The notes: generated by a model not told the origin, from the letters alone. A DNA stretch of 64,000 nucleotides from Nitrospirota bacterium (GCA_021789555.1 JAJYJK010000001.1:76581-140580); one strand, 5' to 3'. Shown: positions 9,096 to 33,200, counted from the first letter of the stretch. Numbers and translations are program-made.

Positions 9096-10280
9096 TCATT
9101 CCGATACAATCCTTGTGATGCCGTATTTCTCTTTCCGGACCGGCAGATACCAAAGCATTCCGTCCACGGTCATGAGGAAGCCCGCCAATATGAGGAAAAA
9201 ATCCAGGAAACTGTACGGGCCCTGCCTTAAAAATTTGCTCATCGCAAAGCCCAGTCCCATGAATGATATGCCGGTCCGTATGAAGGCCAGCCCCGTCCTC
9301 GCCCTCGCATATATCGTCCGGTAGCAGCCGGCAAGAGTCCTCTGGGCGGCCAGCATGTTACGCTCCCTGGCCAGGTGCGTCCTCTCCTTGCTGGCCGGAC
9401 TGGGGGGAAGGATGGTGCTGTAATCGGTCACGAAATCCCCCAAACGGGCCAGCATCGTGCCTTTTGTTTTTTTCCCGGGCGCGCCCTCCAGGTGATATTC
9501 CTGGGTGAAATGCAGTGTCACGCCCGTCACCTCCACCAGGGTCTGCTCTCCTGGCGTGCTCATGCGGGACCTGCGCACCCTGACATAGGTGACAAACCCG
9601 CTCAAGGAAAAAACTATCCCCACGAGCAGCATCAGCGCGTAAAACGGTTTCAGCGGATGGGCCTTGATCCTCATCAGGGCATCGGAGAGGGCCACTATGC
9701 CAAGCCCCCACCTCAGAAGGGCCAACCCCGTTCTGGCCTTGGCAAGGTCGGTCCTGTAGCAGGCAAGCCTCGTCCTCCAGTGGGCCATGACATTGCGCCA
9801 GCAGGCAAGCCCCGTCCTCTCTATGCCTATGAGAAATTCGGGCCTCGCGTGCAGGTAATCCTGTATATACCACTGTATGTCCTCCGCGAGGGCGACCCTG
9901 AACTCATACATCTCGGCCGGAATTAGCTTCATCGCCTCGCTCCTCACCGTCCGGCTCTCCGGGTTAACGGCCGCGATGACAACCGTTGCCCCCGTCATCA
10001 TCACCGGGAACCACTGGCTCCTCGAGAGCACGTCGCTTTTGAGCCCCTCAAAGAGATGCGTCGGCACGGGCAGCCTCTCGTCATACTGGATGGAGCCGCA
10101 TCCGAAATGCCTTGACAGGGCGGCCAGAAGGGCCCACCTTGGAACGCCAAATTCCCTCAAGAGCACCCTTTCGACCTCGACCCCGCGGGCCCTTGCCGCG
10201 TCCCGCGCCTTCAAGAGGGCCTCCTCCGTGATGACCCCCTCTTCCACCAGGGGCACGAATTTTCTCAACTTACCGGTCAT
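9096..10280 (-). CDS. T2SSE_N/MshEN-like N-terminal domain fused to two DUF202-like membrane modules (paralog B)
   Basis: The N-terminus KFVPLVEEGVITEEALLKARD...ALLAALSRHFGCGSIQYDE is GspE-N-like. Two modules follow with heptad-spaced RT motifs (ERTHLARERNMLAAQRTLAGCYRTIYARARTGLAFIRTG), each followed by 2 TM helices. ATG 10280 (MTGKLRKF) overlaps the upstream stop by 11 nt. Confidence 0.6.
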   Translation of the reverse strand: MTGKLRKFVPLVEEGVITEEALLKARDAARARGVEVERVLLREFGVPRWALLAALSRHFGCGSIQYDERLPVPTHLFEGLKSDVLSRSQWFPVMMTGATVVIAAVNPESRTVRSEAMKLIPAEMYEFRVALAEDIQWYIQDYLHARPEFLIGIERTGLACWRNVMAHWRTRLACYRTDLAKARTGLALLRWGLGIVALSDALMRIKAHPLKPFYALMLLVGIVFSLSGFVTYVRVRRSRMSTPGEQTLVEVTGVTLHFTQEYHLEGAPGKKTKGTMLARLGDFVTDYSTILPPSPASKERTHLARERNMLAAQRTLAGCYRTIYARARTGLAFIRTGISFMGLGFAMSKFLRQGPYSFLDFFLILAGFLMTVDGMLWYLPVRKEKYGITRIVSE

Positions 10281-11928
10281 GGCTGAAGAAAACCCTCTTC
10301 CAGGAGACGCAGGGCACGCTGTAGTCGGGCGGCTGTATCTCGAAGTCCCCGAAACAATACGGGAACTGCTTTTTTTCCCTCTCGGCCGGCACAAGCCAGT
10401 AAATGCCGTCGCCGGTCAGATACAGGCCCGCGGCGATAAGGAAAAGTTCGAACCCCGCCCAGTACATGTTTCTCGTCCCGAAATAGATAAAGAGCCCCGC
10501 CCCTACCGCCGAGATGCCAAGCCCCGTCCTGATGAAGGCCATTCCAGTCCGGCAGCGGGCCATCACCGTCCTTAATCTTGCCATTATATTGCGCCTGTCG
10601 GCAAGCAGCGTGCGCTCAAGCGCAAGGCCGGTCGTGGCCCAGACGCCGGGGCGCTGCCCCCGGCAGACCGCGGGGGCGGGATGATTTTCCCCGCTGTGTT
10701 TTCCATCTCCGGAGGCAAAATGGCTGAACATCGGGAAGACGCGGTCCCATATCGTCTTCGTCCTCTCGGCCCTCTTTATGCTTTCCAGCCCGGCCTTCCC
10801 CGCCCCCCTGCCGGGCAGGTACCAGTGAAAACCCTCGGCTATCATGGCCGCGCCGGACACAATCAAACCCCAGGTGAAGATGGAGGAGGCCCATCCTCCA
10901 TGGCCGAACTGGCGCAGAAACCCTATCCCTATGCCGGAGAAGGCGACCCCCGTCCTGGTGAACGAAAGCCCCATCCTGGCCTTGGCCATCCTGGTCCGAA
11001 GAAAAGCCAGGATCGTCCTTTCCTCGGCCAGATCGGTGCGGTCGCTGGCAAGAAACCTCCGTCTTTCAACCGGGGAGAGCGAATCCCACTGTCTCCTCAG
11101 GGGGCCGGCCCCTTTTACAACGGGGCTTCTGCCGAAATTCGGGGTTTCTCCCGGATTTGAGACCTCGAGGGCTGAAAAATCATCGGGGATATCATAGGGG
11201 TGATAGGGATAAATGTCCCTTGACTGCCGCCTCGCCGGCAGGTACCACAAAAAGCCGTCCCAAACGGCCGCAATCCCCAAAAATATCAGCGGCGCCTCCA
11301 TGGCAAGCAGCCATCCCGCGCCAAAAAGCCTGAGAAACGAGACCGAGATGGTGATAAACGCCAGGCCCGTCCGCAAAAACGCGAGCCCCGTCCTGCCCTT
11401 TGCGAAGGCCGTCCTCTGGGCGGCATATGCGGAGCGCCTGTCCGCCAGATATGTCCTCACCTTGGCAAGCGGCGTCCTGCCGGCCGAGGGGGGAAAAGCC
11501 GGGTTCAAGTCCCAATTGTTTTCTATTATCCTGATCAGGTCCGGGCGCGCGGCGGCCAGAAAATTTATCTCATTTACCCCGAGGGTCTCCCGGATGCCCC
11601 GGCCCAGCTCCGGATCGTCCGGCCTGCAGGCTATGACCTCCGCCCTGCCTTCAAGGATTGAGACAGGCAGCCAGAGCTCGGCCTTCAGCCTCTCCACATC
11701 CATCCTCCGCAGGATGGACTGCGAGACCATCAGGTTCTCCTCGTATTCGACGACAGGACAGCCGAAATGCTCCGCCAGGCAGAAAAGGACTTCGTGCTTC
11801 GGCACACCGGCCTCCAGTATGGCGTCCTCCAGGCAATTGCCGTTGCCGCCGGCCTTTTCCTGAAGGTCTTCCAGGTCCCGGGGGGTCAAAAACCCCCGCC
11901 TTATGAGCCGTTCGAATCTCTGCGGCAT
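10270..11928 (-). CDS. T2SSE_N/MshEN-like N-terminal domain fused to three DUF202-like membrane modules (paralog A)
   Basis: The N-terminus is RFERLIRRGFLTPRDLEDLQEKA...VLFCLAEHFGCPVVEYEE. Three modules follow, e.g. LERTLLADRRNIMARLRTVMARCRTGMAFIRTGLGI, each followed by 2 TM helices. Confidence 0.6.
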   Translation of the reverse strand: MPQRFERLIRRGFLTPRDLEDLQEKAGGNGNCLEDAILEAGVPKHEVLFCLAEHFGCPVVEYEENLMVSQSILRRMDVERLKAELWLPVSILEGRAEVIACRPDDPELGRGIRETLGVNEINFLAAARPDLIRIIENNWDLNPAFPPSAGRTPLAKVRTYLADRRSAYAAQRTAFAKGRTGLAFLRTGLAFITISVSFLRLFGAGWLLAMEAPLIFLGIAAVWDGFLWYLPARRQSRDIYPYHPYDIPDDFSALEVSNPGETPNFGRSPVVKGAGPLRRQWDSLSPVERRRFLASDRTDLAEERTILAFLRTRMAKARMGLSFTRTGVAFSGIGIGFLRQFGHGGWASSIFTWGLIVSGAAMIAEGFHWYLPGRGAGKAGLESIKRAERTKTIWDRVFPMFSHFASGDGKHSGENHPAPAVCRGQRPGVWATTGLALERTLLADRRNIMARLRTVMARCRTGMAFIRTGLGISAVGAGLFIYFGTRNMYWAGFELFLIAAGLYLTGDGIYWLVPAEREKKQFPYCFGDFEIQPPDYSVPCVSWKRVFFSHDR

Positions 11929-15698: not shown

Positions 15699-16235
15699 CT
15701 AATCGATGGCGGGGTTTTCAGTCTCCGATATGTCGAATTCATAGCCGAATTCCGTCCCGGCCTTTGACAGAAACTGGCATATCTCGTCCCGCCCGGCCGG
15801 CTTCTCGAAGAAAATCCGGGTGATCCCGTGCCCCGTTTCCACAAGCAGATGATATTTGGCCCGGAACACCCCGACCAGCAGAAACAGACCCGTCCCCAGC
15901 ATCACCCAAAAGCCGACCGGGATCAGCGGGATAACGAAACCGTCGGGGTCCGTGTCCGCGTCGAGACGGAGCCCCGTCAGGCTCGAAACCAGGATTATAA
16001 ATTCGCCGATGACTCCGAGCATTACCATGGTGAAACCGGAGAGAAAATGGCAAAACGGGCGTTTCACCCCCGTGTCGCGGCAGAGCTTCAGTTTAATTAT
16101 CCGTTCCCTCGGGATCGTCTTGACGGGCTTTCCGCGCCGCAGCCGGCTGATCGAATTGGGCGAAATCATCACCCCGGAACATCTGAGATGCCCGCTTCCG
16201 CTTTCCTGCCCCCCATATGCGGAAGTCTCACTCAT
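15699..16235 (-). CDS. Hypothetical membrane protein (2 predicted TM helices)
   Basis: Open frame with two hydrophobic helices (FLSGFTMVMLGVIGEFIILV, VIPLIPVGFWVMLGTGLFLLVGVF). No family recognised. An extended -10 (TGATATAAT) ends 7 nt before ATG 16235. Confidence 0.5.
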   Translation of the reverse strand: MSETSAYGGQESGSGHLRCSGVMISPNSISRLRRGKPVKTIPRERIIKLKLCRDTGVKRPFCHFLSGFTMVMLGVIGEFIILVSSLTGLRLDADTDPDGFVIPLIPVGFWVMLGTGLFLLVGVFRAKYHLLVETGHGITRIFFEKPAGRDEICQFLSKAGTEFGYEFDISETENPAID

Positions 16236-16269: not shown

Positions 16270-16301
16270 CACCAAAAACCCCAAGCCGTGGAAAACACGG
16301 C
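16270..16301 (-). terminator. Hairpin plus U-rich tail, candidate terminator of the PilZ-REC transcript
   Basis: Minus strand reads GCCGUG-UUUUC-CACGGC followed by UUGGGGUUUUUGG. Confidence 0.45.
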
Positions 16302-16544
16302 CCGAAATTGCATAACCGGACGGGATAGGCAACGCCGGCGCCGTTTTTTGTATTTTCCATAATACCATGATATCAGCCCGCCCCCGTAATGGGAATCGGA
16401 AATACTTCCTATACCGGGGGGGAAAAACTCCTAGGCCTGCCGCCAAAAAACTCCCTTGGGCCGGGTAAAGCATCGGGAAACCGGGGGGAATACGCCCGCT
16501 ATCTATTTGAAAAACAAGAAAATAAGGTGATGATGGCGCCTTTT

Positions 16545-17414
16545 TTATTTTATGCCGAAAAAATCCCTGATCCTCTCGAGCACGGACTCCGGGTTTCCCG
16601 ACTTGATGATATGGTCATCAACCCCGTGCTGAATGGCCATATGCGCCGTTTCCCTGTCGCCGTCCGTGACCAGAAAAACCGGCACGCCGCCCATGTCGCG
16701 GGAGCTTTTGAGCTTCTTTAATATCTGCCAGCCGCAGTCCAGCCCAGCCGGCCCGCAAAAATCCATCAAAACAAGGTCGGGCTTTATCCCGAGGGCCAGC
16801 TCCTCGGCCTTGGGACCCCCGTCCGCGTATGCCTCGAAATCCGCTCCGGAAAAAATGGCGCTGTAGCTCTCACGTCCTGAAGCGCTGGGGTCTATTATCA
16901 GTATCTTTTTCTTTTCGGCGGCGTCCGCGCCTCCCCGGGGCAGCTCCCGCGGGGCCATTGCCCCCTTCCGGGTCGCCTGGGACTCCATGAGCCAGTTATA
17001 AAGCCCGCCGGTCTGCCTGTATTCGAAGGCCTTTTCTTCCGGCCATTTCGAGGTGTCATGCCCAAGCAGCTCCACCTGCCTCTGATGGACATACCTGGCA
17101 AGCCTTTTCTGCTCCGGCTCGTTCCTGAGGAACTCTATTCCCCTCAGGCTCCCATACGTAAACCTGACTATGCCCGAAAGCTCGCAGACGCCCTGCCGGG
17201 GCAGAAAAATCCGTATCTGTTCGATCAGTGTGCCCGACGGAAGAAGGCCGTCCCGGCCGGCAACGGCGTCGCTGATCTGTATCATGACGCCCCCGATGCT
17301 TATATTTCTCACCTTGATGAAAGGGGCCATGCCTTTCAGCTCTTCCTGCATGAATGAAACTTTCACAGGATCGGCGCCCGAGGGGGGCACCCTCAGGTAA
17401 TCTCTTTTCTTCAC
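16545..17414 (-). CDS. PilZ domain - receiver domain hybrid protein (candidate c-di-GMP-responsive stator regulator)
   Basis: The N-terminus has the PilZ signatures RDYLR (RxxxR) and NISIGG (D/NxSxxG). The C-terminal REC has ILIID, LVLMDF, FLVTD and IIKS. GTG 17414 is preceded by GGAGGG. Confidence 0.75.
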   Translation of the reverse strand: MKKRDYLRVPPSGADPVKVSFMQEELKGMAPFIKVRNISIGGVMIQISDAVAGRDGLLPSGTLIEQIRIFLPRQGVCELSGIVRFTYGSLRGIEFLRNEPEQKRLARYVHQRQVELLGHDTSKWPEEKAFEYRQTGGLYNWLMESQATRKGAMAPRELPRGGADAAEKKKILIIDPSASGRESYSAIFSGADFEAYADGGPKAEELALGIKPDLVLMDFCGPAGLDCGWQILKKLKSSRDMGGVPVFLVTDGDRETAHMAIQHGVDDHIIKSGNPESVLERIRDFFGIK

Positions 17415-17598
17415 TCTACCCTCCGGGACCGAAACTCAATAACGACGGCCGCCTGTCCTCTCCGCAGGCGCACGGCCGGGCGCCCCTTCACCCGGCGCAT
17501 ATGTTGCCGCAAAAAACCCCGTAGTTTACTATACCAGAAGCAGGCCGGTTTGTATAAAAAGCCTGCTTTTTTCCGGGTCCGGCGCTGTTTCCGCGGCC

Positions 17599-18384
17599 CT
17601 ATTCATATGCCCTGGCCTGTTTGAAGAGGACTATCACCGAAATCCTTCTGTTTCTCGGGTCCAGGGGGTCGTCTTTCACGAGGGGGACCGTCTCGGCATA
17701 TCCGGCGACCCTCGATATGCGGGAAGGGTCCAGGCCATAGACGGTCAGGAGCCTCCTGGCGGCAAGCGCCCTCTCCGTGGAGAGGTCCCAGTTTGTATAT
17801 GCGCCGCGCACATAGGGGAGCGCGTCGGTATGGCCTTCTATGGCGACCTCGTTCGGGGCGTGCCTTATGGCCCCGCCGATGACGCTCAATATCCTTTTTG
17901 CGTCGGGGGTTGGGTTGGACGAACCGGTGTCGAACATCGGCCTGCCCTTTTTGTCCATGATCTGGATGCGCACGCCGCCATTGATGATGTCCACCCGGAT
18001 CTGGTCTTTTACATCGCCCAGCTTCTGCTGGATAAGGTGTTTAAGCATCTGCTCCATCAGCACCGGGCTGTTGGCCGAGCTGCTTGCGAACCGCTTTCTC
18101 ATCTCAAGGGAGAGTTTCGAGGCGTTGGCGCCGGACTCATTGAATACATTGCTGGATTTTTTCATGATGGACTGGCCGCTCTCGGTGAAGATACTGAAAT
18201 TCTTGAAGTAATCGGCGACCCTCGCCCTCTTCTCCGGCGCGATCATCGTAATCAGCCACAGCAGGAGGAAAAAGGCCATCATGGCCGTAACGAAATCGGC
18301 GTAGGCGACCTTCCAGGAGCCGCCGTGCGCCTCCTCACCGATCCTTTTAATCTTCTTTTTGATGATTATCTTCTTGTCTTTCAC
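17599..18384 (-). CDS. motB: Flagellar stator protein MotB (OmpA-like C-terminus)
   Basis: GGSWKVAYADFVTAMMAFFLLLWL contains the conserved plug/TM Asp. The C-terminus is OmpA-like, EGHTD...N..LS..RA. Confidence 0.9.
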   Translation of the reverse strand: MKDKKIIIKKKIKRIGEEAHGGSWKVAYADFVTAMMAFFLLLWLITMIAPEKRARVADYFKNFSIFTESGQSIMKKSSNVFNESGANASKLSLEMRKRFASSSANSPVLMEQMLKHLIQQKLGDVKDQIRVDIINGGVRIQIMDKKGRPMFDTGSSNPTPDAKRILSVIGGAIRHAPNEVAIEGHTDALPYVRGAYTNWDLSTERALAARRLLTVYGLDPSRISRVAGYAETVPLVKDDPLDPRNRRISVIVLFKQARAYE

Positions 18385-19232
18385 TTGCCCCTGACTTCCT
18401 CTTCAAGCTCGTTGAAGGATGGGCGGTCCTCGGCGGGGATAGCCCTGCGGCCGAACTCGACGGCTATCTGCGGCGCCGCGCCGCCTACAAAGGCCACTAT
18501 CGCCACCTTTATCAGCTGGAATTCCACCTCGTCCTTCTTGGCCCTGTTTTCAAGGTTCGTGGCGACGGGGCCGACGAAACCGTAGGAGAGCAGGACCCCC
18601 AGAAAAGTCCCCGTGAGCGCGGAGCCTATGCTGTGCCCGAGCACGGAGGGGGGCTGGTCTATCTTGCCCATCGTAAGCACCACCCCCAGCACCGCGGCCA
18701 CTATGCCGAGCCCCGGCAGCGCGTCGGCGAGCTTGGCCAGGCTCCGGGAAGGCCCCAGCGCCTCGTGCTGTCTCGTCTCTATCTCCAGGTCCATCAGGCT
18801 TTCAAGCTCGTGCGAGGGCACATTCGTCGTTATTATCACCTTCATGTTGTCGCAGATGAAATCGACGACATTGTGGTTGTCGGCATTTACCTGGTAAGAG
18901 CTGAACACGGGGCTGCCTTCCGGCCTCTCTATGTCGGCCTCCACCGCGACAAGCCCCTCCTTCCTGATCTTGGAAAACAGCCTGTAGAGCAGGACAAGCA
19001 GTTCCAGATACTCCGCCCTGCCCTGGCTCCTGCCCCCTATCGAGCCGCGTATGCTTTTGACCACGTAGACAAGCAGACTGTACGGGGATGATATCAGGAA
19101 GGAGCCCAGGGCCGCCCCGGCGATTATGATTATCTCGGAGGGCTGATAGAGGAGGCTTACGTTGCCCTTCTCCATGAGGAAGCCGCCGAGGACCGACACG
19201 ATCACGACCACAATGCCTATTATTATGAGCAT
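18381..19232 (-). CDS. motA: Flagellar stator protein MotA
   Basis: 4-TM MotA/TolQ/ExbB-type layout. It has a 4-nt overlap with motB. Confidence 0.9.
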   Translation of the reverse strand: MLIIIGIVVVIVSVLGGFLMEKGNVSLLYQPSEIIIIAGAALGSFLISSPYSLLVYVVKSIRGSIGGRSQGRAEYLELLVLLYRLFSKIRKEGLVAVEADIERPEGSPVFSSYQVNADNHNVVDFICDNMKVIITTNVPSHELESLMDLEIETRQHEALGPSRSLAKLADALPGLGIVAAVLGVVLTMGKIDQPPSVLGHSIGSALTGTFLGVLLSYGFVGPVATNLENRAKKDEVEFQLIKVAIVAFVGGAAPQIAVEFGRRAIPAEDRPSFNELEEEVRGK

Positions 19233-19251
19233 GCGGCCTCCCCTGGCATCG

Positions 19252-20757
19252 TCATGTCTTCTCCAGGCGCTCCTCTTTCAGGATGTCCCCCGTCTGCCTC
19301 TGCGGTATATCGATGATGAAGCGGGAGCCGCCCTCCTCGGTCCTGCCGACCTTTATGGAGCCGCCGTGCCCGATTATGATGCCGTGCGATATCGAGAGGC
19401 CGAGCCCCGTGCCCACGCCGACGGACTTGGTGGTGAAGAAGGGGTCGAAAATCTTGTCCGCGATCTGCTCCGGTACGCCCGCGCCGTTGTCGGATATCGT
19501 GACGGACGCCTTTTTTGCCGCGCCGTCAAACCGGGTGGCGAAGACGATCCTGCCTTTCGGGGGCCGGGCGTCGGCTATGGCCTGTTCCGCGTTTATGAGG
19601 ACGCTCAGAAAGACCTGCTGCATCTGCTGCGCGTCCACAAAGAGGGTCGGCACGGCCCCGTAGTCCCTTACCACCTCGATACCGCCCAGCCTGAGCCAGT
19701 AGTTCCGTAGCTCTATGGTGCGGTCTATGATGTCGTTTACGGACTCGAAACTCTTGGAGAGCGCCTGCTGCCTGGAAAAGGTGAGCAGGTTTTCCACTAT
19801 CTTCTTGCACCTCTCGGCGCTTATCATTATCTTGCCGATCACCTCGCCGCCCTGCTCCACGCCCTTTCTCATCTTCAGCAGCTCGGTATAGGCTATTATC
19901 CCGGTGAGGGGGTTGTTCAGCTCGTGCGCGACCCCCGAGACCAGAAGCCCTATCGAGGCCAGCTTGTCCGAATGGAAGAGCTGCTCCTTCAGGCGCCTCA
20001 TCTCGGTTATGTTCTTGAGGAAGTAGATGGTCATGTCCTGGTTTTCGAACCGCAGAGGGAAGATGCTCACCAGGTAATAATCGTTGTTTATCTTCTTTTC
20101 GACGGGCTGCGAGGCCTTTTGGTTTTGTCTCCTGATGGCCTCGAGCTCCATGGAAAGCCCCCTGCCCAGGAGGTCGCGGCTCTTCATCCCGGTGACGTCC
20201 TTTGGATGTTTCCCGTAGGCGCCGGCCAGGGCCGAATTGACCTTGATGATCCTCTGCTGCTCATCGGTTATGAATATGAAGTCGGTTATGGCGTCCAGAA
20301 AGGCAAGCCACCTTACATGGTTTTCGAAGAATATGTTTTCGAGGCGGTTTCTGCCGGCGCTGCCGGCCTGGCGCGCGGCGGCCTTCCTGAGCGCAAGCGG
20401 CAGCTTCAGGGCAAAATCCGGGGCCTCCGAGGACAGGAAGTCGTCGGCCCCCTCGTCCATGGCCTGCAGACATAACTCCTCGTCCTCGCGCTCCGCGACG
20501 ACAATCACCGGCGCCGCGGCGTTCATGAACTTGAACCCTTTCACGAATTCGCGCCAGTCGGCGCCCGGCAGCGGCGCCGTTATGAAAAGCGCCGTAAGGC
20601 CCTCGGCCTCAGCATGTGAAAACCCCTCGGCCCGCGGGATGAATCTCAGCTTGTAGAGGCCATTGCCGCGCCCCCTGAAGGCGTTTTTTATCCCTTCCGC
20701 GGGCAGCGGACCACCCAGAAAAACTACCCTGTTTCTTTTTCCTTCTTTTTGCCTCAT
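19252..20757 (-). CDS. Sensor histidine kinase: pseudo-receiver - PAS - HisKA - HATPase
   Basis: H-box VSGVAHELNNPLTGI, N/G boxes (INAEQAI, DNGAGV, GTGLGLSI), and a PAS-like middle. The N-terminal REC-like fold lacks the acceptor Asp (ALFITAPLPG). ATG 20757 (MRQKEGK) was chosen because the longer track ORF overlaps the upstream gene. Confidence 0.8.
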   Translation of the reverse strand: MRQKEGKRNRVVFLGGPLPAEGIKNAFRGRGNGLYKLRFIPRAEGFSHAEAEGLTALFITAPLPGADWREFVKGFKFMNAAAPVIVVAEREDEELCLQAMDEGADDFLSSEAPDFALKLPLALRKAAARQAGSAGRNRLENIFFENHVRWLAFLDAITDFIFITDEQQRIIKVNSALAGAYGKHPKDVTGMKSRDLLGRGLSMELEAIRRQNQKASQPVEKKINNDYYLVSIFPLRFENQDMTIYFLKNITEMRRLKEQLFHSDKLASIGLLVSGVAHELNNPLTGIIAYTELLKMRKGVEQGGEVIGKIMISAERCKKIVENLLTFSRQQALSKSFESVNDIIDRTIELRNYWLRLGGIEVVRDYGAVPTLFVDAQQMQQVFLSVLINAEQAIADARPPKGRIVFATRFDGAAKKASVTISDNGAGVPEQIADKIFDPFFTTKSVGVGTGLGLSISHGIIIGHGGSIKVGRTEEGGSRFIIDIPQRQTGDILKEERLEKT

Positions 20758-20867
20758 CCGCCAGCGGCCTGCGCCCCCCGAAAAGTCCGCGGGGGCGGGC
20801 AAGTTATTATGACCGTTTGCGCCCATATTATCCAGTGCGCCCGAATGGCTGTCCCGGCCATGGGCCA

Positions 20868-22343
20868 TTATACGCCCTGGGACGGCGCCCCTCTGCCGGC
20901 GGGGGTCTGCAGAAAGGCATTCACTATCAGCCCGTCGAACTGCGTCCCGGAACACCTGACCAGCTCCTTCACAGCCGCCTGATGGGATTTCGCCGACCTG
21001 TAGGGCCTCACGCTCGTCATCGCGTCGAAGGTGTCGGCGATCGACAGTATCCGCACTATGAGGGGTATCTCGTCTCCGCCTATGCCGTCCGGGTAACCGC
21101 CCCCGTCGAACCTCTCATGATGGTGCCGGATGAGGGATTTCTCCTTGGGGAAGAATTTCATCGGGGATATGATGTTGTCCCCGATGACGGGGTGGAGCCT
21201 TATCTCTTCCACTTCCTCGCTCGTAAGCACCCCCTGTTTAAGCAGCACCATGTCCCTGACGCCGATCTTGCCTATGTCGTGCAGGTACCCGCCAAAGGCG
21301 ATCGCGTTTTTTTCATCCTCGGAGAGACCCATTATCGCGGCAATCTGGAGGGCATAGCCGGTCACCCTCTCGGAGTGTTGTTTCGTGTATGAGTCCCTCG
21401 CCTCGATGCTGTTTACGAGCGATTTCAGCGCGCTCACCAGGGAGGTGTAAAAGACATCATAGAGGGCGTTGTTCTCTATCCTCAGCGCCACTTTCCTGGC
21501 AAAGGTGAGGCCGAGACCTATTTCGTCCTCGCTGAAACTGGTCCCGTCGGCCTTGTCCCCGATATTGAGCACGCCGAAGACCTCGCCGTTTATGGCAAAG
21601 GGGATTGAAAGCATCTGCGCCCTGAGGAGGTTGCCGTCGTGGGGGTCCATCTCCCCGGCCGCGGCCAGGTAGTGTTTGCCGTTTTTCACGACCTTCTCAA
21701 GGAGGCTTCCGGCAACCGGTATTTCCTTTTCCTTCATGCCCTTGGATTTCTTTATCTTCAGGTAACCGTTTTCGACGATGCCGAAGCTGACCAGCCTGGC
21801 GAAAAGCAGTCTGGAGGCCATCCCGACGATCTTTTCATAAAGCTCCGCATTGCTTGAGAGGCCGTCTACTTCGGCGCTTATCGTCTTCAGGAGGTTTATC
21901 TTCTGTATCTTCGAAAAGAGGGCGGAATTGAGCCTCTTGACGGATTCGGAGGAGAACCCGCCGTCCTGCCTGGTCAGGCTCCTCGCTCCGGCAAGCCTGT
22001 TTATTATGGATTGGATGGAATCTATGTTGAAGGGCTTCGTTATGAAATCGTCGGCCCCCTCCTTCATGGCGCTCACGGCGGCCTCCACCGTCGGGTAGCC
22101 CGTGATCACCACCACCGAAACACCCGGATTGCCCTTCTTCACCTCCTTAAGGAAGTCCATCCCGCCCAGGCCGGGCATCTTCAAGTCGGTGAAAATTATG
22201 TCATATTCGTTTTCACTTGCCTTGCGGAGGCCGTCAAGGCCGTCTTTCGCCGCCTCCGGCCTGTGGCCTATGCCCGCTATGATCTCCTGAAGGACCTCCC
22301 GCACGACCGGGTCGTCATCTACTATCAGTATCCTGGACGCCAT
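20868..22343 (-). CDS. Response regulator REC - GAF - HD-GYP (c-di-GMP phosphodiesterase type)
   Basis: REC motifs ILIVDDD and IIFTDLKMPG. HD-GYP motifs YLHDIGKIGV, RHHHERFDGGGYPDG and ADTFDAMTSVRPYR. Confidence 0.85.
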   Translation of the reverse strand: MASRILIVDDDPVVREVLQEIIAGIGHRPEAAKDGLDGLRKASENEYDIIFTDLKMPGLGGMDFLKEVKKGNPGVSVVVITGYPTVEAAVSAMKEGADDFITKPFNIDSIQSIINRLAGARSLTRQDGGFSSESVKRLNSALFSKIQKINLLKTISAEVDGLSSNAELYEKIVGMASRLLFARLVSFGIVENGYLKIKKSKGMKEKEIPVAGSLLEKVVKNGKHYLAAAGEMDPHDGNLLRAQMLSIPFAINGEVFGVLNIGDKADGTSFSEDEIGLGLTFARKVALRIENNALYDVFYTSLVSALKSLVNSIEARDSYTKQHSERVTGYALQIAAIMGLSEDEKNAIAFGGYLHDIGKIGVRDMVLLKQGVLTSEEVEEIRLHPVIGDNIISPMKFFPKEKSLIRHHHERFDGGGYPDGIGGDEIPLIVRILSIADTFDAMTSVRPYRSAKSHQAAVKELVRCSGTQFDGLIVNAFLQTPAGRGAPSQGV

Positions 22344-22914
22344 TGCCTCTTAACAACCTTTCCTTTAGGATTTCAGCTTCAGCCAGGCTCAGTATGTTGT
22401 CCGATTTCAGCTTCTCCAGCCTTTCTATCCACTCTGTGACGAGGCATGGGTTGTCTCCGCTTGAGACGGCCTTGAGGATTTTCAAATCCCTGTAGGTCTC
22501 CCTGAGATGTTCTTTAAGTTCACGGTTTTCCGCGAGCAGCCTGGCCCTTTTAAAGGCCCTGTCGGCCACTATGATAATCTCCTGTATCTTGAAGGGCTTC
22601 GTGAGATAATCGTATGCCCCCTCGGCGATCGCCTCCAGCGTGGCCTCCAGCGTGCCGTAGGCCGTAATTATGACCACGCTGGTCTCCGGGTTTGCCCGCA
22701 CGCTGGTCCTCAGCACCTCGAAGCCATCGGCCCCCGGCATCTTGAAATCGGTGATGACCATGCCGATCTCCTCGGTCATGAGCGCGCTAATGGCCTGGAG
22801 CCCGTCCACGGCGGTAAGGACCGCATACCCTTCCTTCGAAAGGATGGAGCCGACGACCTCGCGGGCGATATCGTCGTCATCGACCACAAGGATCTTAAAA
22901 TCCCTTTTATTCAT
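22315..22914 (-). CDS. Response regulator receiver with a C-terminal coiled-coil tail
   Basis: ILVVDDDD, MVITDFKMPG, VVIITA and LTKPF, with ~70 aa of helical tail. It overlaps the next gene by 29 nt. Confidence 0.85.
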   Translation of the reverse strand: MNKRDFKILVVDDDDIAREVVGSILSKEGYAVLTAVDGLQAISALMTEEIGMVITDFKMPGADGFEVLRTSVRANPETSVVIITAYGTLEATLEAIAEGAYDYLTKPFKIQEIIIVADRAFKRARLLAENRELKEHLRETYRDLKILKAVSSGDNPCLVTEWIERLEKLKSDNILSLAEAEILKERLLRGNGVQDTDSR

Positions 22915-22943: not shown

Positions 22944-23141
22944 CTACCTGGCCTGCCTGATCCGCTCAAGGACCGCGCCCTTTGCCTCGTCGAGGACCTG
23001 TTTCTTCTTGGCCTCCGAGGAGATCATCACGACGTCCTTGGGCTCCGCCTGGTCCTTTTCAAGGAGGACCGAGGTCGGCAGTTTCAGCGCCCTGGTGTAC
23101 AGGTGCATCATCTCTTTCATCTGGAAGGGGAAAATCGTCAT
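22944..23141 (-). CDS. Small hypothetical protein (65 aa) translationally coupled to fliS
   Basis: Its ATG overlaps the fliS stop (ATGA, 23138-23141). It contains DVVMISSEAKKKQ, reminiscent of the (I/L)S.EAK segment of FlgM-family proteins. Confidence 0.45.
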   Translation of the reverse strand: MTIFPFQMKEMMHLYTRALKLPTSVLLEKDQAEPKDVVMISSEAKKKQVLDEAKGAVLERIRQAR

Positions 23142-26523: not shown

Positions 26524-29500
26524 TTATGAGACTGCCTCGCCGCCTGCACCACTCGCTACAGCCTGAAAAGAGGCTTTTTCAGCCTGCATGCTTCTCAACA
26601 TATCGGCCAATTCCATTCCGATTTTCTCCAGGGAGTAATGTCTTGCGATAAATTCCCTTGAATTGATAGCTATCCGACGCCAAAGGCCGTCATCGGAATA
26701 CAAGCCCACCACACATTCGGCGAAGCCATCCGCGGAGTCCGCAATCAAGGCGGTTTCACCGGAAATGAGGCCTATTCCTTCAGCTCCAATTGAAGTAGTG
26801 ACTACAGGGACCCCATGCGCCATCGCCTCGCCTATCTTCCCTTTCATGCCGGCGCCGTATCGCAGCGGTGCAATGGAAATTCTTGCCCTTTTCAGATAAG
26901 GTCCCGTTTCCGGCACGTACCCGGCGACGATGATATCCTTGTTTTGAAGGGATGCAATTTCTTTGGGAGGAAGTGGTCCGACAATCGTAAACGTCATGTC
27001 CGGTATCTTCGCCTTGATTTTGGGGAAAATCTCGCCCAGGAAATATTTAACCGCGTCTACATTGGGCAGGTGATTGAAATTCCCGACAAAAATCAACCCG
27101 GAGCGTCCGTCCGATTCTATCGGGCCTTCATCTACGCAATGGATATTGGGAATTACAAAGTGTCTTGCGCCGGGGAGATAATCTCTTATGTGGTCCCAAT
27201 CCCTGTCCGTTATGGTTATGATGGCGTCGGCTTTGCCATAAATATATAATTCATCTTTTTTTGTCGCCTCTGCCTTCTTCAGCAATGCCTTATCGCTGTT
27301 CAATTCGGCCATTCTCTGTTCCCGGACGAAATGGATGTCGACAGTGTCTATCAGGATCTTGGTGCCAGGGGAGCAAGCCCTTATTTCGGGCAGATACTGA
27401 AGCGCGACATCATAGAAAGATAGAAATGCCGTCTCATAAAACCTGTCGGACAAGATCCTTTTTAAATCAATCGACTCGATGCCGGAAATCCCTGATCGGT
27501 CCAATTTTTGCGGGTCCGTGGCATAAACTTCAACTCCCAGCCGTTGCAAGACCCTGATGTAACGCTCCTGATCTCTGCCTTCACGTGCAATATATGTAAT
27601 GTGATAATTCTGTTTTTTCAAAAGACGGATAATCGAAAGAAGCCTCAACGAACCGGACGCCCTGTCAAACCAGGGCAAATATTTATCGATTATTAAAATA
27701 TTCCCCTCGATCTGACGTTCGCTGCCCGGAATCACATTACCGCTGCCGGCAGGATACTGATTTTTCAGCGCGCCGGACCATTTTATGACGAATTTCTCTT
27801 TATTTATGTCTTGAAATTTTTTCATCCCCGCGGACAAGTCCGTTCCACTCGTGGCCCCCTCGTGATGTATTACAAGCGAGAGCGGACAATAGACCACCTT
27901 ATAACCGGCAGACCGCGCGCCGAAACACAAATCGGTATCTTCATAATACCCGGGGGAGTATCGTTCATCAAAATAATTCAACTGCTGCAAAAGGGACCTG
28001 CGAATTAACAGACAGGCCCCGGAGACATAATCAATCTCTTTCACATAATTATAAATCGGCCTGGAGGGATCATCGCCCCTGCCGAAATTCCAGCCGCTCC
28101 CATCATTGAAAATGATGCCCCCGGCTTCCTGTAACCGTCCGTCAGGATACGTGAATTTTGGCCCGGCAATACCTGCTTCAGCGTCGGATTCAATTGTCTC
28201 CACAAGATATTCCAACCACTTTGGCTGCGGCTCCGTATCGTTGTTGAGGAAAACGATATATTTCCCGCCGGCCGCGGCGGCCCCTTGGTTGCATGCCTTC
28301 GTGAAGCCCAGGTTTGCATCATTGGAAATTACATTTACACGCATCTTTTCATTCAGGCCCTTCAGATAATCCTTTGTCCCATCCGTGGAGGCATTGTCGA
28401 TTATGATAATTTCGCAAAGGTCGCAGGGCGTGTTTCTCCTGATTGCCTCGATGCATTTTCTTGTATATTCGACCTTATTAAAAACGGGTATGATAATCGA
28501 GACCACTGGAATTTCCCTCTTTTGGCCTTGTTTGGCCGGTTCCGCTTCAAGCGCCCTTCCAAATAGTGACTCGGCCCTGGCCCCCTGCCCCTTGTCCAAA
28601 CGGAGGCCACCCAGGGCCAAAAGGGCGTCCGCATCGCGCGGCGATACACTCAATATCTCCTCATACGTCTGCATCGCCTCTTTTTCGCGCCCCGACGCCT
28701 GAAGGAGGCGGGCGAGGTTTTTCCTTGCCGCAATGTTTCCCCCGTCTGCGGCCGCCGCATGGCGCAGGCAGAAAAGGGCTTTCAATTTATCGCCCAGGAG
28801 TGCATAATTCATGCCGGTAAGGTCCAACACCCAGGAGTTCCTGGATGAGTTGCCGGACAGGATTTTCGCATGGTCCCGTTTCGCGCTCTCCGGGCCGCTT
28901 GCAAATTTCAGGGCGCGCCCGTTGTGGAAATTCCGCGCCATCGCCTTAATAGTAAGCCTCAGCGACTGGTCCAGGTATCTTCCGGCCGCCTTCGCGTCCG
29001 ACCCTTTAAGCGCCGAGCCCAGGAACAGACAGGCTGCCGCCTCGTCCTCAACGTACTTGCCTTCCGGTGGCGCCTGGCGGACTGCTCCTTCGGCGCCGGT
29101 CGGCAATGCCGCCCTTATTGCATCGAGTGTCGCCTCGAGCCAGGCGCGCCCGAATTTCAGGTCCGGCTCGAGATGATTGCCCTCGCCCCACTCGTTCCAG
29201 GCGTTTATGAATACGATATCATCGTCCAGGTTGCGTTCTTCCAGTGTGTCTATCTCGTGGCCAAGCCACTTGCCGTAAAGCGAAGGCGTGGCCCCCAGAA
29301 AAATAAAGGCATCCGTCGATTTGCGCGCCGTGTTGTCCCATGACGGAGTTACGCAGGGGAACCTCTTGAAAGGAGGTATCTCCTTCCTGCAGACCAGCTC
29401 TACCGCATCCCGGTAGGAGCTGACCCAGTTGCCGTCAGTCAGCAGATTTGCAACCGGCCTCAGGCCGGTCCAGTCCGGCTGAAATTCCACCGAGGCGTCA

Positions 29501-30195
29501 AAGCCGAGGGTTTCAGGGCGTGAAAGTTCGCCCCCGAAGGCCTCCACCCTGCAGAGGTAGAGGCCGGGCAGCCCGAGCCTCTGCGCTTCTTTTCTCCAGA
29601 GAGAAGTCGTCCCAAGCGGATCGGGAAGGTCGCTCACCCTGTAGACGAGCAGAAGCGGTTTCCCATTCACCCTTATGTATCTGTCGTCGCCAAAGACGCC
29701 GCAGAGCCACCGTATATGATTAAGGTCGTCCTCCTTGCTGTAATGCTGGTCAATGAGCACCTCGCTTGAGCGCCCGTCCCAGTTCCTCGTCCATTTCTCA
29801 TTGGCCCAGCAGAGGCAGAAGGGGAAATCGGGTTTGCCTGAGGCGAGCACCTCCTGCAAGGGACGCCCAAGCGGTCTCTTCCCGTTAAACCAGTAATGGT
29901 AATAGCAGAAACCGTAAACGCCGTACTGCCTGGCAAGCTCCGCCTGGGCCTCCCTGGTCTCGGCCAGGCGAAGGTCGTAAAATCCCAGGTCGGCGGGTAT
30001 ATGCGGCTGATAATGTCCGGGGAAAAGGGCTTTCGCCTTTGTAACATTCGTCCATTCGGTGAAACCCTTCCCCCAGGCGCTGTCGTTTTCCGGTATGGGA
30101 TGATACTGCGGAAGATAAAAAGCTATCAGTTTGGGATGACGCCTTTGCTTGTCCATGCCTGTCCTTTCAGCTGCGGATTCGCCCGTCTTTTTCAT
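26524..30195 (-). CDS. Multi-domain glycosyltransferase (1223 aa): WbsX/GH99-like - TPR - GT2 - GT-B (GT4-like)
   Basis: aa ~20-370 FYLPQYHPIPENDSAWGKGFTEWTNV...CWANEKWTRNWDG (WbsX-like). TPR-like helices ~aa 470-545. GT2 from aa ~563 (VVSIIIPVFNK...IIIDNASTDGT...DTDLC). C-terminal GT-B (GAGMKGKIGEAMAHGVPVVTTSIGAEGI). Confidence 0.8.
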   Translation of the reverse strand: MKKTGESAAERTGMDKQRRHPKLIAFYLPQYHPIPENDSAWGKGFTEWTNVTKAKALFPGHYQPHIPADLGFYDLRLAETREAQAELARQYGVYGFCYYHYWFNGKRPLGRPLQEVLASGKPDFPFCLCWANEKWTRNWDGRSSEVLIDQHYSKEDDLNHIRWLCGVFGDDRYIRVNGKPLLLVYRVSDLPDPLGTTSLWRKEAQRLGLPGLYLCRVEAFGGELSRPETLGFDASVEFQPDWTGLRPVANLLTDGNWVSSYRDAVELVCRKEIPPFKRFPCVTPSWDNTARKSTDAFIFLGATPSLYGKWLGHEIDTLEERNLDDDIVFINAWNEWGEGNHLEPDLKFGRAWLEATLDAIRAALPTGAEGAVRQAPPEGKYVEDEAAACLFLGSALKGSDAKAAGRYLDQSLRLTIKAMARNFHNGRALKFASGPESAKRDHAKILSGNSSRNSWVLDLTGMNYALLGDKLKALFCLRHAAAADGGNIAARKNLARLLQASGREKEAMQTYEEILSVSPRDADALLALGGLRLDKGQGARAESLFGRALEAEPAKQGQKREIPVVSIIIPVFNKVEYTRKCIEAIRRNTPCDLCEIIIIDNASTDGTKDYLKGLNEKMRVNVISNDANLGFTKACNQGAAAAGGKYIVFLNNDTEPQPKWLEYLVETIESDAEAGIAGPKFTYPDGRLQEAGGIIFNDGSGWNFGRGDDPSRPIYNYVKEIDYVSGACLLIRRSLLQQLNYFDERYSPGYYEDTDLCFGARSAGYKVVYCPLSLVIHHEGATSGTDLSAGMKKFQDINKEKFVIKWSGALKNQYPAGSGNVIPGSERQIEGNILIIDKYLPWFDRASGSLRLLSIIRLLKKQNYHITYIAREGRDQERYIRVLQRLGVEVYATDPQKLDRSGISGIESIDLKRILSDRFYETAFLSFYDVALQYLPEIRACSPGTKILIDTVDIHFVREQRMAELNSDKALLKKAEATKKDELYIYGKADAIITITDRDWDHIRDYLPGARHFVIPNIHCVDEGPIESDGRSGLIFVGNFNHLPNVDAVKYFLGEIFPKIKAKIPDMTFTIVGPLPPKEIASLQNKDIIVAGYVPETGPYLKRARISIAPLRYGAGMKGKIGEAMAHGVPVVTTSIGAEGIGLISGETALIADSADGFAECVVGLYSDDGLWRRIAINSREFIARHYSLEKIGMELADMLRSMQAEKASFQAVASGAGGEAVS

Positions 30196-30244
30196 ACGGC
30201 CCGCCTTTTTTCAAACAGCCTGCCTTTTTTTTAAACGGATTCCA

Positions 30245-33200
30245 TCAGACCTTCAAACAACTTTCATTTTTATTTTTATTTTCAAGCCGCTTCCTCACCG
30301 CCTCCAGCGCCCGACCGAGCGGGATTTCGGAGGCCGGCCCCTTTTCATTGAACAGGATTTCGGCCTTATCCCCTTCCGCGTAACAGCCGGTATAAGGCAT
30401 GTATCGCTCAAAGATGCGGTATCTGCCAAGCAGTATGACCCCCGGCGTCATAGTCGCGTTCGCCAGGTGGGCGGGCCCGCTGTCTACACCTGCGAAGAGG
30501 GCCGCCCGCCTGATGACCTCCGCCGTCTCAAGAAGCGATAATTTATTGCAGAGGTTTATGCCCGCGCCCTCCGGCAAAACGGGCCTTGCGCCGACTTCGA
30601 CAACCGGAATCCGTAATTCTTTTGCCATAAATGAGGAAAGCTGTGCCCATTTGGAGGCCGGCCAGTCCTTGGCCGCCTCGTTGGACTCGCAATGAAACAC
30701 GGCGTACCGTGCCGGAAGCGGCAATTGTCGTACCCGCCGGACTGCGGAATCCGTGATGTATACCCTGGGCTGCCTGTCCCCGACGGTAACGCCCGCGCCA
30801 AGTGAAAAGGCCTCAAGCAGGCTGCCGAAGGAAAAATAGTTTTCGACATTTATCTCGGTCCTGCCCCTTTTTTTCCTGAGCGGGACCCCGCAGACAGGGC
30901 ATATCCTGCCGTTTACATGAAGATCGAAGACCTCGTCGAAGATGCCGCTTTCGGCAATCAAAATCCACTCCGTAAGGCAGTCGACAACGAGCGTTTCATC
31001 GATGTTTGGATTGCTGTCGATCAATTCCCTGTAAGGTTCTCTTACCGCCCAGGTAATCCTGGCCTCGGGATATCTCTCTTTCAGGCTGCGCGATACGGGT
31101 TCACAGGCCACTATGTCGCCGAAATGCTCAGTAAGCCCGACAAGGACACTCTTTACAAAAGGAGAACCGGCGGTGTTCCCGGCGCTTCCGGCCGCCATGC
31201 CCGGCATCGGACTGCCGGCGGCTTCTGCATCATGGCCCAAATTCGGCTTGCTGCTTTTGCGCGCAAGGCCGGATCCCTTTTTGCGGCCTAAAACAATAAT
31301 CTCGTCCGGATTGAATCCACGGCACAGCTCGAACGCTTCCAGACCGGATGCCAGGAACAACCTTTTGATGCTGTCCCGTGTAAACAGAAAGAGATGCTCA
31401 TCGGGCTTGAACTGCATCCATTCCCTGCCCTCCCCGCTCCAACACGGGGTCTGGAATATGCATACGCCGTCGTCCTTGAGTCCGGCCGCGACCGCGGAAA
31501 GTCCTTCCACGGGAGAAGAGAAGTGCTCGATGACGTCAAATCCGCAAATAACGTCGAACTTGTCGTACGGCAAATTTACATCCGGAAACAGGCCGCCTAT
31601 GATGAAAGGCAGATTAAAGCGCTCGCGGGCGAAACTGCATGTCCGTTCGTCGACTTCCACGCCCACGACGTGCGCGGCCCCGCGCTCGCGGCAGTAATGC
31701 AGGAACCCGCCGTGGGCGCAACCGATTTCAAGCAGATGCTCCGGCCTGGGATTATATCTCGTGAGGATCTGATGCCAAAATGGAATTCGGTTCTTGAAGT
31801 CCATTTCCGCGCGCTCTTCTATCGGCGGGTAACCAAAATCCTTCGCTACATACTCGTGCCAGTAACCATCAAATGAATAGAACTCCCTCAGCCTTTCCTT
31901 TTCGGGAAATTCTTTTACCACATAAGTTCCGCATTCGACGCACCGCGAGTACGACGGATTCACTGCTTCCACGAGCCCGCCCCCGCACCAGCATTTCCGA
32001 CCGGGTAAAACTTCCGGGACTGACCCTTTTTCATTTGCGGGCATCTTGCCATCCCCTGATTTCGCAATCAGGAAAGAACATTCCGTCAGCATAACCTGAA
32101 CATCCGGGTTTAGTTTTTCTCCCCTGAGACCTTCGAGGACCCGGCGGGCGTAATCGGTCCTGCCGCTTTCAATCAGCTTTCTCGCGTAAACCGCCAGCGC
32201 GGCGGGCATATCCATGAACTGGCCGGCCCGTCTCGCAAGCTCCATGCCGCTTTCCTTCCTGCCGGCGCAAAGATGGGCCAGGGCCAGCGTGGAGAGGACC
32301 ATGGGGTGCGTGTTTTTGCTTTTTCCATTTTCAAGCAGTGCAATCGCGGCCCCGGCATCCCCTAGAAATACCTGGCAGCGGGCGTACAGATAGCTCGTCT
32401 CCAGGCAGTCAAGCGGCGACTTGAAGGCCTTCTCGATGACCTCTTTGGCCTCGCCGTAACGTGCCAGCGCGCACAGGGAGTCGGCGACCCCCAGGTGCGC
32501 CTCCAGGTGGCCGGGCCTGATGCGGGCGGCCTTCTTCCAGTTGTCAAGTGCGTCTTCAAACCTGCCCAGTTCCCCGGCCTGAACGGCCAGTTCCATGGCG
32601 GACTTGAAATCGTCCCCGCCTTTTTCAGAGAGTTTCGCCCTCCCCATTTCAAAATAGTCCCTGCCTTTTTCCTGCACCTTGTCCGCGAAGAGTTTCCCAT
32701 AATGGTGGATGGGTACGCCGCAGGGCGCGATTTTTATGCCCGCCTCCGCCAGGGAGTCCTCCACCACCTCGTGGACCGGGTTTTTGAAACGTATCCTCTC
32801 ATCGTTCGCAAAGAGCCTTACCTTAATGCTCGGCAGCCAGCCGGTGCCCGCCTGTTCCGGGTAAGCGCCGTCGTTGGCCCTCCAGCCCCAGATTGAGGGC
32901 GAGAGTATGTAATTTCTCGTAGTGAAGCTGTAGGCCGTCTTTTTCGTTTTCGCCCCGTCGATAAGCGCCCTGAGTTGCTTGCGGCTCGACGGGGATATGA
33001 CCTCGTCCGCGTCCATCACGAGTATCCAGTCGCCCGTGGCGCGGGATATGGAGAAATTCCTCGCCCCGGAGAAATTGAAATCCCCGGTCCACTCGAAATC
33101 GAAGACCTTTGCCCCGAGCGCCCTGGCAATTTCCTTCGTGCGGTCCCGGGAGCCCGTGTCCACGACTATCAGCTCGTCCGCAAGCGGCCTGAGATTCAGC

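Follow-up and report, generated by a model that had tools for sequence, protein, structure and literature searches.

We analysed a 64,000-nucleotide stretch of DNA from a Nitrospirota bacterium (GCA_021789555.1 JAJYJK010000001.1:76581-140580; hereafter the window), in which the flagellar stator genes motA and motB stand within a run of signalling genes. This run probably encodes a flagellum-dedicated cyclic di-GMP (c-di-GMP) module that is built into the stator operon of an uncultured Nitrospirota clade. An original prediction made from this DNA had six genes following fliS and a 65-amino-acid open reading frame (ORF; orf65) in one orientation and with short gaps, and we confirmed both their coordinates and their position on the minus strand (Table 1). 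In order of the strand, orf65 is followed by genes for a receiver (REC) protein with a helical tail, a REC-GAF-HD-GYP protein, a histidine kinase, MotA, MotB and a PilZ-REC hybrid. From fliS to motB the genes are tightly coupled: the fliS stop overlaps the orf65 start (ATGA), 29 bp separate orf65 from the first response regulator gene, which in turn overlaps the REC-GAF-HD-GYP gene by 29 nt, the stop of the latter overlaps the kinase start at 20868 (TAATG), the kinase and motA genes lie 19 bp apart, and motA overlaps motB by 4 nt. The predicted spacer of 184 bp (17415-17598) between motB and the PilZ-REC gene is also present. The cassette stands at the end of a large supercluster of flagellar and chemotaxis genes, all of them on the minus strand.

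The genomic context of relatives, assembled from contig look-ups and a scan of GTDB and analysed by tblastn, revealed nine lineages (loci are numbered L001 onwards) that share the order fliC-flaG-fliD-fliS-orf65-REC-(REC-GAF-HD-GYP)-kinase-motA-motB-PilZ(REC). All nine are Nitrospirota metagenome-assembled genomes (MAGs), those from the genome collection being titled 'Nitrospirae bacterium'. The gene order, which the original prediction had singled out for scrutiny, is thus conserved in relatives whose PilZ-REC identity falls from 76% down to 31%, whereas MotA is 70-91% and the REC-GAF-HD-GYP protein 69-90% identical. PilZ, with or without its receiver, directly follows motB in nine of nine lineages, at a distance that ranges in the relatives from 7 bp (L006) through 48 bp (L009) to ∼165 bp, and synteny breaks immediately after it. 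Downstream lie a 178-amino-acid membrane ORF and major facilitator superfamily (MFS) genes in the window and L001, other genes in L004, MFS genes in L016 and L017 and, starting 6 bp beyond PilZ-REC in L009/L019, fliK with a short FlhB-like gene; in L009 the PilZ-REC gene consequently stands between motB and fliK. One lineage (L007 10001-10417, L018 10001-10351) carries at this position a PilZ-only gene of 138 amino acids, the receiver and linker having been deleted. We rejected a truncated gene call as the origin of the L007 protein, since an MFS gene on the opposite strand begins 23 bp later.

More distant relatives hold the same frame around a different PilZ protein. Homologues of the REC-GAF-HD-GYP protein (55-61% identity) form more than 100 clusters, every named one of which comes from Thermodesulfovibrionales or Nitrospirota MAGs, and as outgroup contexts we examined three Thermodesulfovibrionales loci (L020, on a 3.25-Mb contig, L021 and L022). 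Here the order is REC with the same tail, REC-GAF-HD-GYP, a C-terminal-PilZ protein, a MotC/MotD-like stator, the kinase and MotA1/MotB. The C-terminal-PilZ protein is 238-255 amino acids long, with its RxxxR and NxSxxG motifs ∼80 residues apart around a helical insert; it matches MotI/YpfA weakly (E=0.025), and its PilZ half aligns to the PilZ-REC family profile with 82% probability. A PilZ-REC-type gene is absent from these three loci, and neither a MotCD-like stator gene nor a 252-amino-acid C-terminal-PilZ gene is present in the window or L001-L019; PilZ(-REC) after motB and the pair of C-terminal PilZ and MotCD-like stator are mutually exclusive in 12 of 12 sampled loci. By their gene content the outgroup cassettes read as dual-stator arrangements. 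They share the REC, HD-GYP, kinase and MotAB genes yet carry a different PilZ protein; the frame of signalling genes is therefore widespread, with the PilZ reader as its exchangeable part. A flagellar role for the module is well supported by this comparison, since its order is kept in nine lineages and the same frame recurs in the outgroups, and a motor-directed c-di-GMP module is a sound reading because the distant relatives, too, carry a PilZ protein inside the cassette. A fourth locus, L023, has GGDEF, a 66-amino-acid ORF, HD-GYP and kinase genes and is without mot genes.

The protein encoded after motB has 289 amino acids. Its full-length sequence scores 21.7 bits against PF07238, just below the gathering cut-off of 22.5, whereas the isolated N-terminal 124 residues score 24.7 bits; PF07238 is matched by 13 of 14 family members (best E=3.3e-10). 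Both c-di-GMP motifs named in the original prediction are present, R4-D-Y-L-R8 and N37-I-S-I-G-G42, and each of the nine motB-linked members keeps RxxxR and [DN]xSxxG intact. An AlphaFold2 model built from 15 sequences has a mean predicted local distance difference test (pLDDT) score of 81, with ∼87-93 for the PilZ and REC domains and <60 for the linker, in which Pfam at E≤10 gave nothing credible. The PilZ half (pLDDT ∼90 at residues 10-118) comprises six strands and a helix at 99-116, and its first PilZ match in Foldseek is the PilZ structure of Escherichia coli YcgR (5y6g; E=3e-6, template modelling (TM) score 0.69). Among solved structures the PilZ profile matches only the flagellar brakes PP4397/FlgZ (E=1.9e-4) and YcgR. 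We therefore assign the N-terminal domain to PilZ despite the borderline full-length score, on the grounds of the isolated-domain score and the 13 of 14 relatives, the motifs and the YcgR-like model; domain, motifs and fold together mark the protein as a predicted c-di-GMP receptor. It belongs to a rare family. A Nitrospiraceae MAG encodes a 'response regulator' with 100% identity to the window protein; a word-indexed search with the window protein returned three proteins and the profile version with a 14-sequence PilZ alignment two, HMMER run exhaustively against 1.84 billion cluster representatives gave six matches at E≤1e-30, and full-length relatives number ∼10 within the best 150 HMMER matches.

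Searches of Pfam and NCBIfam recovered every other domain that had been named. The REC-GAF-HD-GYP protein, a predicted c-di-GMP phosphodiesterase, carries HDIGK and, as claimed, an intact HHERFDGGGYP. The structure of PmGH (4mcw) can be aligned to its residues 241-479 (E=2e-32), HDIGK, HHERFDGGGYP and DTFDA being conserved and H, HD, H, HH, D and GYP kept; E185 of PmGH is replaced by Tyr, which we take to suggest a metal site of the binuclear type. With the NosR-family model NF053512 the protein reaches 201 bits, half the cut-off of 400, and it is therefore not one of that subfamily. Next to it, the maximal kinase ORF (19252-20955) would give 567 amino acids and a start at 20868 gives 538; this ATG is most likely the true start because of the TAATG overlap and the length of the homologues (532-537 amino acids). 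The N-terminal receiver of the kinase is sub-threshold (18 bits) and, in the alignment, has no acidic pair, Ala in place of the acceptor Asp, which bears out the original prediction, Ala for Thr and Ser for Lys. The kinases of L006 (6802-8301) and L007 (6636-8132) have the acceptor Asp in this domain, still without acidic pair, Thr and Lys. The MotA protein matches the proton-stator equivalog model; MotB scores 252 bits with NF006548, under its cut-off of 277, and passes the Pfam models in Table 1.

For the first response regulator, residues 8-149 align with the receivers of DctD and NtrC1 including their coiled-coil linker, the tail motif WIERxExLKS...LKERL is kept in L020 too, and the tail has no known output domain, Pfam at E≤10 giving nothing credible. 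The orf65 product, which may be part of the signalling module, is 52-58% identical to a 69-amino-acid ORF (L020 8195-8404) located ahead of the REC gene of that locus. It matches the NCBIfam family DVU0524, a FlgM-associated family, weakly (22 bits, cut-off 40) and has no Pfam match, with nothing credible even at E≤10. A protein of 65-69 amino acids is encoded upstream of the first response regulator gene throughout the nine ingroup lineages and also in L020, heading the cassette there; in L021 and L022 no such gene was called immediately ahead of REC. An unaligned 66-amino-acid ORF has a similar position upstream of the HD-GYP gene in L023 (7628-7828).

The original prediction had phosphorylation tune both c-di-GMP turnover and a stator-directed PilZ effector. 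The motor-directed c-di-GMP module survives this analysis, given the gene order in nine lineages and the PilZ protein of the outgroup cassettes, whereas phosphorylation of the PilZ protein is weakly supported. The second acidic residue of a receiver, equivalent to CheY D13, is a direct Mg2+ ligand in established receiver chemistry. In the PilZ-REC receiver we found D218, T250 and K271 together with the predicted single acidic residue (D175-P176), the second acidic ligand being absent. Each of the eight motB-linked receivers has DP, SP, DH or ER as its pair; DD occurs in all six PilZ-REC paralogues that are unlinked to motB, which have the canonical DD-D-T-K set. Motif retention runs the other way in the PilZ domain, RxxxR and [DN]xSxxG being degraded in two to three of the six paralogues. 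The linked members also have the DxxMP loop, kept in the paralogues, replaced along with a two-residue insertion; their Thr is Ala in two of eight (L015 and L009) and their Lys is Arg in one of eight (L001), both residues being kept in the paralogues, and the receiver, always present in the paralogues, is missing from L007/L018 while PilZ is retained. Receiver and linker moreover diverge faster than the PilZ domain, identities to the window protein for PilZ, REC and linker being 85, 73 and 65% in L001 and 51, 39 and 26% in L006. Because of this gradient and the motif retention, the c-di-GMP-binding half is the main target of selection. A working phospho-acceptor of the local kinase, integrating phosphorylation and c-di-GMP on one motor effector, is possible and finds some backing in the invariant D218, in the Thr and Lys kept in six of eight and seven of eight linked members, in a receiver that passes its Pfam threshold (PF00072, 33.2 bits, cut-off 30.2) and is modelled with a normal fold that matches many receiver domains (TM ∼0.84 to RR468), in a kinase encoded three genes upstream, and in genetic data suggesting that the receiver of the PilZ-REC protein PixA is phosphorylated (PMC8316039). 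The residue losses nonetheless make it doubtful. By sequence the domain looks like an atypical or pseudo-receiver, paralleling the pseudo-receiver of the kinase itself, and is most likely not a normal phospho-acceptor.

Two other explanations would take the motor out of the scheme. PilZ-REC might be a c-di-GMP effector with a non-motor target, such as PixA-like polarity, that follows motB by descent or operon hitch-hiking. PixA, the characterised PilZ-REC protein, does work in a non-flagellated organism, and several further observations point in this direction and weigh against a dedicated motor module: distant PilZ-REC relatives (L011, L013) lie away from flagellar genes, PilZ-REC evolves faster than any other gene of the cassette, and it has its own promoter-like site in the window subclade. 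This explanation is nonetheless improbable, because the gene stays next to motB in nine lineages while its downstream neighbours change, is only 7 or 48 bp from motB in L006 and L009 with fliK just beyond it in the latter, is matched among solved structures by YcgR and FlgZ only, and has a counterpart in sister lineages, which carry another PilZ protein beside a stator in the same cassette. It is more improbable still that the kinase and receivers chiefly control late flagellar expression or assembly in the manner of FlrBC/FleSR. The genes do occupy the interval from fliS to motA in a late-gene operon, the first receiver is of NtrC/DctD type, and orf65, itself conserved, has a weak resemblance to a FlgM-associated family. 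Both response regulators, however, lack an AAA+ or DNA-binding domain, one of the two outputs is an HD-GYP enzyme whose catalytic motifs are intact, and the outgroup kinase gene lies between two stator pairs, near the PilZ gene. Against the c-di-GMP module also speak the gap of 150-184 bp between motB and PilZ-REC in the window subclade, the relatedness of the nine lineages, which makes part of the synteny plain inheritance, the second-best Protein Data Bank match of the HD-GYP domain, the cGAMP-specific enzyme V-cGAP3 (5z7c), 3'3'-cGAMP (cyclic GMP-AMP) being likewise hydrolysable by HD-GYP enzymes, the lack of a diguanylate cyclase among the scanned window ORFs, and the fact that every organism with the cassette is an uncultured MAG.

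Ligand binding, phosphotransfer and motor effects in the module we favour, that of a dedicated c-di-GMP circuit at the stator, are extrapolated from domain identities, intact motifs, operon structure and the conserved linkage to motAB. The soluble PAS kinase would sense a cytoplasmic cue and phosphorylate the two canonical receivers encoded upstream of it, those of the tailed REC protein and of the REC-GAF-HD-GYP protein. Phosphorylation, possibly together with a GAF ligand, would set HD-GYP activity and with it the c-di-GMP level that reaches the motor. The PilZ protein after motB would read c-di-GMP and brake or clutch the interface of MotAB and the rotor in the way of YcgR, MotI, FlgZ and MotL, and the fused receiver would more likely be a docking or second-contact domain, or dispensable. 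MotA, FliG and FliM are candidate targets at the motor, and the receiver might touch FliM as CheY or the Cle proteins do (PMC5677366). A bolder version, which we regard as unlikely, starts from a conserved HD-GYP/kinase/stator cassette of Thermodesulfovibrionia and has one clade exchanging the C-terminal-PilZ protein and MotCD-like stator for a PilZ-pseudo-receiver in which the receiver fold, instead of PilZN, provides the second motor contact, either binding FliM or FliG like CheY and Cle or docking the kinase or HD-GYP protein. If true, the protein would mimic CheY under the gating of c-di-GMP and independently of phosphorylation, and signalling at the stator would run through a physically local complex.

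YcgR, FlgZ and MotI are the classic brakes or clutch through which PilZ domains exert c-di-GMP control at the stator-rotor interface, and they have the order PilZN-PilZ. The window protein differs from them in that its PilZ domain starts at residue 4 without a PilZN match and is followed by a receiver. The Pseudomonas MotAB/MotCD stators with FlgZ resemble the outgroup cassettes L020-L022, which pair two stators with a PilZ protein, but the Pseudomonas stator and FlgZ genes are dispersed and unjoined to an HD-GYP/kinase pair, and the window clade has one stator pair at the locus. Closest in position is MotL of Shewanella putrefaciens, a PilZ protein without PilZN that is encoded 34 bp after motB and regulates that motor in response to c-di-GMP (PMC8203827). 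Like MotL, the window protein lacks the YcgR N-terminal domain, has both c-di-GMP motifs intact (RxxxR in each, with DxSxxG in MotL and NxSxxG here) and is encoded on the same strand directly after motA-motB (PMC8203827). The likeness is one of description and architecture: MotL is a 144-amino-acid single domain to which the window protein adds a linker and receiver, a stand-alone PilZ of the MotL kind (138 amino acids, same position) occurring only in L007/L018, and MotL serves the lateral flagellar system of a gammaproteobacterium instead of a Nitrospirota motor (PMC8203827). Closest in domain order is PixA (MXAN_1087) of Myxococcus xanthus, which binds c-di-GMP, determines how often cells reverse in type IV pilus and gliding motility, and likewise has an N-terminal PilZ (RxxxR near residue 9) and a C-terminal receiver (PMC8316039). 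PixA, however, acts in type IV pilus and gliding polarity of a non-flagellated host, is encoded by an orphan gene instead of after motB, and keeps all phosphorylation residues in its receiver, of which the window protein lacks the second acidic ligand (PMC8316039). The Cle proteins of Caulobacter crescentus combine a receiver fold with a c-di-GMP-binding element and target FliM; they bind c-di-GMP by a short arginine-rich C-terminal peptide, not PilZ, and cluster with CheY (PMC5677366). A published list of domains commonly partnered with PilZ includes REC (10.1101/2020.02.11.943704).

The claim to novelty in the original prediction, that PilZ-REC had not been described as a stator partner, is thereby narrowed. 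Neither PilZ-REC, known from PixA (PMC8316039), nor a PilZN-less PilZ after motB, known from MotL (PMC8203827), is new by itself, and the principle of motor control by c-di-GMP is established; we found no open-access paper on a PilZ-REC protein adjoining a stator or on this Nitrospirota cassette. What distinguishes the cassette is that a single unit encodes the signal-removing enzyme, its probable kinase, the stator and the PilZ reader. Control of the motor by c-di-GMP is known mainly from Proteobacteria and Firmicutes, with effector genes that are usually scattered. The PilZ reader varies among sister lineages, from a YcgR-sized C-terminal-PilZ protein with a second stator to PilZ-REC or PilZ alone, and thus offers a natural series for working out what a PilZ effector requires in order to act on a motor. 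The cassette is a candidate case of local c-di-GMP signalling, and its value is comparative.

Table 1 Coordinates of the cassette and neighbouring features (window positions unless a locus is named)
Feature	Position	Strand	Basis or remark
orf65, conserved 65-aa protein	22944..23141	-	66-91% identity across nine lineages
Response regulator, canonical receiver and ∼80-aa helical tail	22315..22914	-	PF00072, 97 bits
REC-GAF-HD-GYP, predicted c-di-GMP phosphodiesterase	20868..22343	-	REC 96 bits, GAF_3 27.2 (cut-off 27), HD_5 118, HD
Cytoplasmic histidine kinase, pseudo-receiver-PAS-HisKA-HATPase_c	19252..20868	-	Pfam PAS_9, HisKA, HATPase_c
motA, MotA stator protein	18381..19232	-	TIGR03818, 369 bits (cut-off 303.8)
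motB, MotB stator protein	17599..18384	-	MotB_plug and OmpA
PilZ-REC	16545..17414	-	PilZ barrel and helix 1-118, linker 119-167, atypical receiver 168-289
Promoter-like site, TATACA-17-TGGTATAGT, extended -10	17528..17556	-	Consensus scan; in the motB/PilZ-REC spacer
Terminator-like hairpin downstream of PilZ-REC	16277..16309	-	14-pair stem, then TTTGGTGTCT T-run; pattern match only
Sigma-28-like promoter upstream of fliC, TAAAGTTTTCCCCTATCCCTTCCGATAA	26420..26447	-	11/12 positions match
orf178, hydrophobic ORF after PilZ-REC	15699-16235	-	178 aa
Tandem membrane proteins	9096-11928	-	Each MshEN (22 and 38 bits) and DUF202
Two very large ORFs, flgL-fliC interval	26524-35932	-	1223 and 1895 aa
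REC-HDOD-HD response regulator	47214-48422	-	Between che and rod genes
CheW-CheZ fusion	49577-50776	-	399 aa; CheW 106 bits, CheZ 119 bits
C-terminal-PilZ protein and MotC/MotD-like stator	L020 10476-12698; L021 10475-12690; L022 9798-11977		Between HD-GYP and kinase genes

The spacer before PilZ-REC contains the -10 that had been predicted, which is of the extended type, and CTTCTG[GA]TATA[GC]TA is kept in the window and the two closest lineages, L001 and L004, while its flanks diverge. Promoter-like matches are frequent in the region, 10 having been found against 4.4 expected by chance. A c-di-GMP riboswitch or other known RNA was rejected for the spacer, since Rfam gave no match at gathering score anywhere in the window and, at E≤1, none between 17300 and 17700. 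A sigma-28 or sigma-54 promoter before the cassette or PilZ-REC was likewise rejected: of the sigma-28-like sites only the one that precedes fliC is good. The hydrophobic ORF downstream of PilZ-REC is conserved only in the subclade of the window, L001 and L004 (62-79% identity) and has no family match, Pfam at E≤10 giving nothing credible.

Along the minus strand the supercluster runs from flhB, flhA, flhF, a MinD-like flhG and fliA to genes for a HEAT protein, CheR, CheA, the CheW-CheZ fusion, which lies between cheA and cheB, and CheB. The gene for the REC-HDOD protein comes next, ahead of flgF, flgG, flgA, flgH, flgI, flgJ, flgK and flgL, after which two very large ORFs, fliC, a FlaG-like gene, fliD and fliS lead into the cassette. 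The MshEN proteins, whose domain is one that binds c-di-GMP, are encoded ∼4.6 kb downstream of PilZ-REC. Genes at the position of the two very large ORFs in L001, L009, L020 and L022 encode multiple glycosyltransferase and TPR domains, which suggests flagellin glycosylation.

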